From NCBI RefSeq assembly GCF_016026235.1, contig NZ_CP065613.1: a DNA stretch of 64,000 bases; one strand, given 5' to 3'. Below, piece after piece: positions 12,848 to 28,286 of the stretch; the first letter of the stretch is position 1, and each line of letters opens with the position of its first letter. The notes beneath the pieces were generated by a model that had not been told where the DNA came from, ran no database searches, and saw nothing but the letters and a program-made list of their open reading frames with translations. A program made the position numbers and the translations under genes. The DNA is from Escherichia coli. Its GTDB lineage: Bacteria > Pseudomonadota > Gammaproteobacteria > Enterobacterales > Enterobacteriaceae.

Positions 12848-13335
12848 ACTGCCGTGAAGTGCGGCACCCCGTAGGTTGGATAAAGCGGTCACGCCGCATC
12901 CGACATCTAACGCCCGAGCCGGTTGCCTGATGCGACGCTGACGCGTGTTATCAGGCCTACACCGCTGTGAAGTGCTCCACCCCGTAGGTCGGATAAGGCG
13001 GTTACGCCGCATCCGACATCCAACGTCCGAGCCGGTTGCCTGATGCGACGCTGACGCGTCTTATCAGGCCTACACCGCTGTGAAGTGCTCCACCCCGTAG
13101 GTCGAATAAGTCGGTTACGCCGCATCCGACATCTAACACCCGAGCCGGTTGCCTGATGCGACGCTGACGCGTGTTATCAGGCCTACACCGCTGTGAAGTG
13201 CTCCACCCCGTAGGTCGGATAAGGCGGTTACGCCGCATCCGACATCCAACGTCCGAGCCGGTTGCCTGATGCGACGCTGGCGCGTCTTATCAGCATACGC
13301 CACATCCGGCATACCATGCCGGATGTGGCACATCA
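12848..13335. repeat. Tandem REP/BIME array, four units of about 110 bp plus a terminal 14-bp-stem palindrome at about 13299-13329
   Basis: Repeated gccgcatccgacatc...gcctgatgcgacgctg...cttatcaggcctaca units; ORF track shows the same MRRNRLIRPTGWSTSQRCRPD peptide in several overlapping ORFs. Confidence 0.9.
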
Positions 13336-25077: not shown

Positions 25078-28012
<2,935 letters not shown>

Positions 28013-28286
28013 AGGGGCGAAGCTCCGCCTCAGGTGACCGATGGAGTGTGGTTAAGGTAGCGGTAAAAGCGTGTTACCGCAATGTTCTGTCACCATTGCA
28101 ATAATGCGTATCGCTTAGAAACCATTGCCTTAACCAGGAAAGCCGGAGTAAATGGACAGTTCTCAGTACGAAAAATAAGAAATGACCAATCTGCCGACGC
28201 TTGTTAATGGTTATATCCTGGCGTCGGCAGATCGCCCAGCAGTCTTATCTGAAAAAAGAAAGAGCCAGGTTGTGTGAAGGGATGGA

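Follow-up and report, generated by a model that had tools for sequence, protein, structure and literature searches.

A perfect inverted repeat between yfaP and rcsC of ato-negative Escherichia coli lies within a decayed remnant of atoS

The window analysed here, a stretch of 64,000 nt of E. coli DNA, contains between the genes yfaP and rcsC an inverted repeat with perfect 12-bp arms (28189–28200 and 28221–28232; 100% complementary) and a 20-nt spacer. Judged by its homology, its synteny and its lost coding integrity, the segment around this hairpin is a remnant of the gene atoS. We consider it somewhat more probable than all other readings together that the inverted repeat is a lineage-specific palindrome, made by mutation in dead DNA, and we hold with moderate confidence that the hairpin has no selected function. 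The original prediction had described arms of 10 bp (28191–28200 and 28221–28230) around a 20-nt loop. These were present where it had placed them, but the arms are in fact 12 bp long.

The DNA around the hairpin matched E. coli O157:H7 genomes with 100% identity. The minus strand carries yfaS (30718–35337), yfaQ (29068–30717), yfaP (28287–29063), which is the last gene of the yfa operon, and rcsC (25163–28012), which has a TTG start; yfaQ and yfaS are annotated as pseudogenes in some O157 genomes. In ato-negative genomes, rcsC is co-directional with yfaP and no canonical terminator stands between them. The intergenic region measures 274 bp (28013–28286), and the hairpin is located in it, on the strand of yfaP, 54 nt 3′ of the stop codon of that gene and 176 nt 5′ of the rcsC start. 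The predicted gene context, with the hairpin between the yfaP stop codon and the rcsC upstream region and with the ato genes absent, was thus borne out.

Of 5426 complete E. coli genomes, 1536 had the whole intergenic region; the remaining ones matched only its first 73–79 nt, on the rcsC side. K-12 was identical to the window up to position 28088 and again from position 28286, which immediately precedes the yfaP stop codon. In between, K-12 carries 7.4 kb with atoS, atoC, atoD, atoA, atoE, atoB and a canonical bidirectional terminator. In the ato-negative genomes, a specific segment of 197 bp (28089–28285) replaces K-12 positions 2319958–2327365 (atoSCDAEB and the atoB/yfaP bidirectional terminator). 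The rcsC-proximal upstream region (28013–28088, minus strand) is the same in ato-positive and ato-negative haplotypes, and 73 of its 76 positions are identical in E. whittamii. It is followed by the diverged remnant of the rcsC–atoS spacer (28089–28167; roughly 55–60% identity to K-12); a patch in it (28111–28138) has been conserved in E. whittamii and, in part, K-12. At the other end of the segment, the stretch from the atoS remnant to the yfaP stop codon is a junction filler (28262–28285) for which the alignments detected no homology to K-12 and no recognisable origin; no other part varies as much between E. coli and E. whittamii.

As judged from these alignments, an ancient deletion demonstrably took atoSCDAEB, from about codon 52 of atoS to just beyond the yfaP stop codon, and left behind the rcsC–atoS spacer and an atoS stub, both of which decayed afterwards. 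The left breakpoint (28088/28089) is 100 nt away from the hairpin, and the right breakpoint (28285/28286) 53 nt. As it is internal to the 197-bp segment, the hairpin does not strictly count as a junction feature. The suggestion that it might be a scar at the ato indel boundary was correct in that the hairpin lies inside the gene remnant left by the deletion, but not as to its position at the boundary. Neither is the palindrome a product of the junction itself, as it is colinear with atoS codons ~24–40 and would have been created later by substitutions.

The atoS remnant (28168–28261, the 5′ limit being approximate; plus strand) represents the first ~52 codons of the gene and was traced by blastn, by global and multiple alignments and by peptide comparison. 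In a sensitive blastn search of the segment against complete E. coli genomes, positions 28194–28261 matched annotated atoS with 78% identity in ~3880 ato-positive genomes. Synteny and orientation are as in K-12, with rcsC, the spacer remnant and then the stub on the plus strand. Arms and loop align with atoS base for base and ungapped; in the atoS frame, the codons for (V)PTL fall on the left arm, those for LTIGYIV on the loop and those for ETEG on the right arm. The remnant peptide MTNLPTLVNGYILASADRPAVLSEKRK resembles AtoS 24–50, and a 31-codon ORF on the plus strand (28182–28277; MTNLPTLVNGYILASADRPAVLSEKRKSQVV) is the old atoS frame (AtoS 24–52: IVPTLTIGYIVETEGRSAVLSEKEKKLSAVV). The remnant has lost its start codon by a change of ATG to ACG. 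It has three internal deletions of ~31, 8 and 13 nt, which took most of TM1 and whose summed length is not divisible by 3, and a further 1-nt deletion near its end, and it is truncated at about codon 52.

The left arm (28189–28200, ATCTGCCGACGC) is homologous to atoS codons ~24–28 (..V P T L), from which it differs at 4 of 12 positions. The spacer or loop (28201–28220, 20 nt, TTGTTAATGGTTATATCCTG) is homologous to codons ~28–34 (L T I G Y I V) and differs from atoS at 5 of 20 positions. The right arm (28221–28232, GCGTCGGCAGAT) stands where atoS has GAAACGGAAGGA, which encodes the universally conserved E-T-E-G; 6 of its 12 positions differ from atoS, and five of these differences create pairing with the left arm. 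Eight of the 12 pairs of the stem are G–C. Folded alone, the hairpin gave −21.2 kcal/mol in the yfaP sense (minus strand) and −22.6 kcal/mol for the plus strand, and the 20-nt loop had no stable internal structure. Compared with shuffled sequences, the 141-nt region around the hairpin gave z-scores of −4.2 (minus) and −2.2 (plus).

For perfect stems of at least 12 bp with loops of 3–30 nt, the expectation by chance was 0.11 per 64 kb, or ~9 per 5.5-Mb genome. At least one such stem was contained in 10% of first-order Markov resamplings of the window, which approximately preserve the dinucleotides. In the window itself, only two other such repeats were found (13299–13329 and 25088–25119), the second of which is a REP-like element between rcsB and rcsC. 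A 12-bp repeat by chance is, on these numbers, unlikely but not impossible.

A terminator pattern scan of the region did not call the hairpin. Its d-score, a discriminant of the type described by d'Aubenton-Carafa et al. (1990) in our own implementation, was −42 in the yfaP sense and −67 on the plus strand, compared with +9 and +7 for the K-12 atoB/yfaP terminator in its two directions. The T-scores were 1.56 (minus) and 0.01 (plus). Past the stem, the minus-strand tail (UGGUCAUUUCUUAUUUUU, also given as UGGUCAUUUCUUAUU) is U-rich only from 6 nt onwards; the tail on the plus strand is CGCCCAGCAG. We rejected a Rho-independent terminator: a GC-rich stem after a stop codon is present, but the loop has 20 nt and neither strand has a U-tract adjacent to the stem. 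Both the missing U-tract and the resulting verdict that this is not a canonical intrinsic terminator had been anticipated correctly. For EHEC Sakai, a dRNA-seq and Term-seq data set is available (GSE143631; Sy et al. 2020).

No promoter-like sites were found by a pattern scan of positions 27900–28400, and positions 27800–28500 had no Rfam match at E≤10. The O157 small RNA Esr41/EcOnc14 was rejected as a candidate for this locus, as Esr41 lies in OI-43/SpLE1. We also rejected a dispersed repeat of the REP, BIME or MITE type: the element occurs at a median of one place per genome, and the arm has no more matches within the window than expected by chance. When metagenomes were scanned for the relic-specific loop, this locus alone was recovered, in two E. 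coli-type copies, apart from two fortuitous matches to unrelated DNA. The 31-aa ORF on the plus strand was dismissed as a small-protein gene, being the atoS frame itself and cut to 14 codons by a stop codon in E. whittamii; it was not found in portions of the Sakai ribosome-profiling supplements, which is a weak negative result. A 28-aa ORF on the minus strand (28204–28290), whose GTG start overlaps the yfaP stop codon, is open in E. whittamii, but was ruled out as a gene by 8 nonsynonymous versus 1 synonymous changes.

Over the 68-nt ungapped block, the atoS gene of K-12 does not differ from the atoS stub of E. albertii, which served as outgroup. At the 12 pair positions, intact atoS has five Watson–Crick pairs and one G·U pair only. 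In place of the relic's GYILASADRPAVLSEK, N-terminal AtoS fragments all have GYIVETEGRSAVLSEK, whether from Escherichia, Salmonella, Citrobacter or more distant relatives; since all orthologues agree, LASAD in the relic is a change on the relic's own lineage. At the level of sequence comparison, these findings demonstrate that the palindrome arose on the relic lineage and that functional atoS is without a palindrome at this place.

The substitutions that separate the relic from atoS are unevenly spread. In addition to the 4/12 in the left arm, 6/12 in the right arm and 5/20 in the loop, there are 2/24 in the next 24 nt. The arms were changed at 10 of 24 positions and the rest of the block at 7 of 44 (one-sided Fisher test, P=0.02), and the right arm alone at 6 of 12 compared with 11 of 56 for the rest (P=0.04); both tests were post hoc. 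Because time-reversible point mutation predicts no excess in the arms, this modest post hoc excess points to a multi-nucleotide copying event or to selection for pairing. Perfect 12-bp inverted repeats exceed the null expectation 38–49 times in non-coding DNA of E. coli, and part of this excess has been put down to the correction of imperfect repeats by template switching (Lavi et al. 2018, PMC5941160). One template-switch event can make a perfect stem (Monttinen & Loytynoja 2022, PMC8794818).

We propose that, once the coding constraint was gone, the right arm would have been rewritten on the relic lineage so that it complements the left arm exactly. The most parsimonious history would begin with three substitutions in the left arm. 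A single replication template switch (quasi-palindrome correction) would then have copied 11 nt, and an independent A>T change would have occurred at the outermost position of the right arm. Finally, and in E. coli only, 28189 T>A would have added the twelfth pair; the A at 28189 is E. coli-specific, and T is found in E. whittamii and in atoS. The relics of E. coli, E. whittamii and strain BS-04 all carry the derived right arm already, and scans of genomes and metagenomes found no pre-palindrome or earlier-branching relic lineage. From the pattern of substitutions, we judge the chances about even that the palindrome was born by a template switch as opposed to stepwise change or selection.

The element was found in ~1541 E. 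coli genomes, 1440 of which were identical over 72 nt; the overall diversity of the ato-negative segment in E. coli is low too. Arm variants in E. coli were rare. They were 28194 C>T and 28199 G>A, for each of which no more than 4 genomes had the exact variant 72-mer, and a further one (28222 C>G) came from a metagenome. The two transitions keep a wobble pair on opposite strands, so that neither strand is favoured. E. whittamii is ato-negative and has the same segment, with a loop identical at 20 of 20 positions. In its stem, one internal pair is mismatched (right-arm C>A) and the terminal pair is missing, both without compensation. Strain BS-04 has a shortened junction and a degraded right arm; it is a singleton and possibly an assembly artefact. 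We rejected it as a pre-palindrome intermediate, as the derived right-arm bases are already present and its deletions are secondary. Covariation for the stem was not detected among the arm variants seen, all of which were single-sided. One double change was observed, at the terminal pair (l1–r12), which went from T–A to T·T and then to A–T. The single-sided, uncompensated changes argue against selection on pairing, a point that bears on the earlier suggestions of a protein-binding palindrome and an RNA-processing site, and the variants compared here give no sign that pairing in the stem is maintained by selection.

E. albertii has an independent and much younger ato deletion, in which atoS codons 1–62, in K-12 sequence, are fused near the yfaP stop codon. 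No comparable hairpin was found at this junction; a 7-bp inverted repeat there is at chance level (~0.9 expected). As this deletion is without the hairpin, the hairpin belongs to one old relic lineage and not to ato scars generally. The comparison of ato-negative junctions that had been proposed earlier thus has a divided outcome: essentially all E. coli junctions and that of E. whittamii have the element, because one ancient deletion is common to both, and it is absent from the E. albertii deletion.

The conservation of one block of the relic (28182–28249) was unexpected. Between O157 and E. whittamii, only 3 of its 68 sites differ (2 of 44 in the hairpin), compared with 24 of 129 in the rest of the ato-negative-specific segment (P=0.005). 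At fourfold degenerate sites, the same two genomes differ by 33% in yfaP, 28% in yfaQ and 41% in rcsC (pooled, 35.5%). The divergence of the block is therefore ~4–5 times below that of the surrounding segment and ~8 times below that of fourfold sites, which would be surprising for neutral DNA unless there was later exchange between the species. The loop is better conserved than the stem between E. coli and E. whittamii, and neither small ORF accounts for the conservation of the block. Among polymorphic sites in E. coli, 4 of 12 are located in the block, which is not a significant depletion; the sample was partly picked for block variants, and the comparison has no power.

Two readings of this conservation may be considered. 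The block may be constrained and have some function. It may also be a short recombination patch whose shared ancestor is younger than the species split, and two things favour the patch. The 25% distance of the relic from atoS is about that of neutral decay since the species split, and the breakpoints at 28088 and 28286 are as sharp as recombination between ato-positive and ato-negative E. coli would make them, because recombination cannot homogenise the flanks beyond the point where the non-homologous segment starts. Over 900 nt into rcsC, O157 does not differ from K-12. No leftover introgression was found in the 3-kb flank on each side, where O157 was no closer to E. whittamii than K-12 is. 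That the atoS stub was recruited, and that the block, which has the hairpin in its middle, is under purifying selection in ato-negative Escherichia as a cis-acting RNA element or a small RNA where the yfaP 3′ end adjoins the rcsC upstream region, seems to us quite unlikely; on this recruitment reading, the perfect stem may have been made in one template-switch step and then retained.

Because the deletion took the only canonical yfaP–rcsC terminator, a role for the strongest remaining structure is conceivable. Stable stems block PNPase and RNase II, and 3′-UTR stem-loops reportedly block exonucleases and define processed 3′ ends after Rho-dependent termination. A yfa-operon transcript that reached the stem would fold a hairpin of −21 to −26 kcal/mol, which would passively impede 3′-to-5′ exonucleases, and the stem base would, as a side effect, be a likely site for a processed 3′ end. 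It is a rather doubtful proposal, though one to be taken seriously, that the hairpin is a selected 3′-UTR RNA element of the yfa operon that guards the yfaP 3′ end or dampens read-through into rcsC. The 3′ end would then result from Rho-dependent termination and subsequent trimming to the stem, an arrangement favoured after the bidirectional terminator was lost. The position shortly after the yfaP stop codon on the transcribed strand, the strength of the stem (z=−4.2) and the loss of the canonical terminator together with ato are all consistent with such an element. Its near invariance in ~1540 E. coli genomes and the conservation of the block in E. whittamii fit as well, and the excess of arm substitutions, all of which create pairing, would also be expected under positive selection. 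However, there is no U-tract, and the 20-nt loop and the d-score of −42 do not suit a terminator. On the minus strand, the internal mismatch of E. whittamii is an uncompensated C·U, and 28194 C>T gives an A·C mismatch. Conservation of the loop above the stem is the opposite of what constraint on structure only would produce, nothing comparable evolved at the independent E. albertii deletion, and the yfaQ and yfaS pseudogenes in some O157 genomes weaken selection on the 3′ ends of the operon.

Other explanations do without a 3′-UTR element. The repeat or the whole block 28182–28249 might be a DNA-level regulatory site for rcsC, with two half-sites 32 bp apart (three helical turns) for a dimeric or tetrameric regulator, or part of a small RNA or small-protein gene derived from the atoS stub. 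The location 176–220 bp upstream of rcsC, the reduced divergence of the block and the invariant loop would fit, but to our knowledge the half-site ATCTGCCGACGC is not a known regulator motif, and neither the promoter scan nor Rfam gave a match at this locus. A small-protein gene is countered by the plus-strand ORF being shortened to 14 codons in E. whittamii, by the 8:1 ratio of nonsynonymous to synonymous changes in the minus-strand ORF, and by the missing ORF in those portions of the Sakai ribosome-profiling supplements mentioned above. We regard this whole group of explanations as very unlikely. The chance that the repeat is a terminal inverted repeat or footprint of a mobile element (MITE or IS scar), or a REP, that mediated the ato deletion is close to nil. 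Its perfect arms and its place in an indel-specific segment would suit a mobile element, but arms and loop align ungapped to atoS coding sequence and are thus not foreign DNA. Moreover, the copy number is one per genome, arm matches in the window do not exceed chance, the metagenome scan returned this locus only, and the element does not resemble the REP at 25088–25119. Independent point substitutions may instead have produced a 12-bp repeat by chance, with no special mechanism and no function. About nine such repeats are expected per genome (0.11 per window), an unconstrained relic can drift anywhere, six of the 12 pairs (5 Watson–Crick and 1 G·U) were already there in atoS, and later lineages lose pairs freely. 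We nevertheless consider pure chance unlikely: 12-bp inverted repeats are ~40 times more frequent in E. coli non-coding DNA than chance predicts, so that chance would explain a few percent of them (PMC5941160), and reversible point mutation does not predict the concentration of substitutions in the arms (P~0.02).

If the preferred reading of a palindrome made by mutation in dead DNA is right, the locus is a cautionary case for annotation, in which a striking perfect hairpin would be debris of a deleted gene and not a regulatory device. The homology to atoS became visible only by a sensitive search against genomes that still carry atoS. The ato-negative haplotype appears to be old, with a remnant ~25–40% away from the ato-positive sequence and present in E. 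whittamii too, and with flanks made identical to K-12 by recombination. The ato locus would thus be a clean example of a long-lived presence/absence polymorphism. Since the terminator was lost and yfaP and rcsC are co-directional and 274 bp apart, read-through into rcsC could differ between ato-positive and ato-negative strains; rcsC is a key envelope-stress sensor, and EHEC O157:H7 is ato-negative. The cluster of arm substitutions is a candidate for a natural perfect stem made by template switch in bacterial non-coding DNA. The feature that could raise the importance of the element is the conservation of the block in E. whittamii; were the recruitment reading true, this would be a bacterial functional hairpin born from pseudogene debris.

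The element can be compared with several known systems. With intrinsic terminators, such as that of K-12 atoB/yfaP at the equivalent position, it shares a GC-rich stem after the last gene of an operon and a comparable stem energy, whereas their loops have 3–8 nt and that of the relic hairpin has 20 nt. Exonuclease-barrier stem-loops of 3′ UTRs (REP-stabilisers) are likewise stable hairpins without a U-tract shortly after a stop codon. Unlike these, the relic hairpin is single-copy and non-REP, shows no covariation, and in related lineages has lost pairs with no compensating change. Gene remnants at deletion scars resemble it in their colinear and syntenic homology in the same orientation, here beside rcsC, in the lost start codon, in the frameshifting deletions and in the raised level of substitution. 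The stub differs from them in being ~25% (plus indels) away from atoS, compared with a divergence of 0–2.7% between the haplotypes in the flanks. Because the stub is far more diverged than its flanks and is common to E. whittamii, it belongs to an old haplotype and not to a recent strain-specific deletion as in E. albertii. Template-switch or quasi-palindrome-correction mutations (Ripley-type model) are characterised by dense changes in one arm that turn it into the exact reverse complement of nearby sequence, and the relic is like them in this and in its prior complementarity of 6/12. It differs in that three left-arm substitutions must come before the switch, and in that the statistical support for a single event is modest (P~0.02–0.04). 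Taken together, these comparisons place the element among known kinds, as a gene remnant of an old deletion with a perfect inverted repeat that was probably born by template switch.

The canonical bidirectional terminator that separates atoB and yfaP at the K-12 locus (L001:13300-13336) is gone with the ato deletion. Consequently, ato-negative genomes carry the minus-strand genes rcsC and yfaP in co-directional arrangement, spaced by 274 bp (window 28013-28286), and no terminator-like site was called between the two genes in this interval. Because the terminator is lost and the genes are co-directional, ato-positive and ato-negative strains may differ in how much yfa-operon transcription reads through into rcsC. 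In several lineages the operon itself appears to be degenerating: yfaS (30718-35337) is an intact ORF of 1539 codons in the window; K-12 has it as a pseudogene, and the O157 strain PV15-279 has it with an annotated frameshift, together with an internal stop in yfaQ.

On the minus strand, a 28-aa ORF (28204-28290) starts with a GTG overlapping the yfaP stop codon (GTGA) and ends in the loop of the hairpin. It has equal length in Escherichia whittamii. The changes relative to that species are, however, eight nonsynonymous to one synonymous, and the ORF is therefore probably not a gene.

The atoS-relic block that contains the hairpin (28182-28249) differs from E. whittamii at only 3 of 68 sites, compared with 24 of 129 in the remainder of the ato-negative-specific segment and 35% at the 4-fold degenerate sites in neighbouring genes. 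This low divergence could be explained by constraint or by a short patch of inter-species recombination. Besides the hairpin, the window holds only two stems that pair perfectly over 12 bp or more. One (13299-13329; GCCACATCCGGCATACCATGCCGGATGTGGC) has 15-bp arms separated by a single central nucleotide; the count of perfect stems recorded it through its 12-mer seeds, whose loops are 3-7 nt. The other (25088-25119) lies between rcsB and rcsC. It is a REP-like hairpin, a non-terminator by score, which differs from E. whittamii at 5 of 32 positions and adjoins a REP insertion/deletion.

Upstream of rcsC, ato-negative and ato-positive haplotypes are 100% identical over the proximal 76 nt, as they are over the first 900 nt of the gene itself, whereas identity falls to ~55-60% in the rcsC-distal half of the upstream region (28089-28167 versus L001 5954-6043). 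The drop is a sharp recombination boundary. Within the divergent half, E. whittamii retains a patch (28111-28138), as for the most part does K-12, and this conservation may point to a shared regulatory site. Adjoining the left arm of the hairpin, TAAGAAATGACCAA (28174-28187) matches the RcsAB-box consensus, TaAGaatatTCctA, at 9 of 14 positions, which is a weak and tentative match.

The junction exists in further forms. E. coli BS-04 has a third haplotype, a singleton with a 199-bp intergenic region (NZ_CP172819.1 2284285-2284483), in which the right arm of the hairpin is degraded and several internal deletions are present; this could reflect either genuine secondary decay or an artefact of assembly. 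In some strains of E. albertii, ato was deleted independently and recently (GCA_002109845.1; L020 2347-2732), which left K-12-like atoS codons 1-62 fused close to the yfaP stop. The fusion is called as a chimeric ORF of 92-96 aa (P0061, P0068) extending into yfaP in antisense orientation. Escherichia has therefore lost ato repeatedly, and the end points are similar. Our search of E. coli genomes also found ~55 genomes with two atoS-like places, and two papers on STEC report homologues of atoSC/atoDAEB within the LAA pathogenicity island or close to it (PMC10562709, PMC9729726). The ato genes can thus have a second, mobile location besides the usual one.
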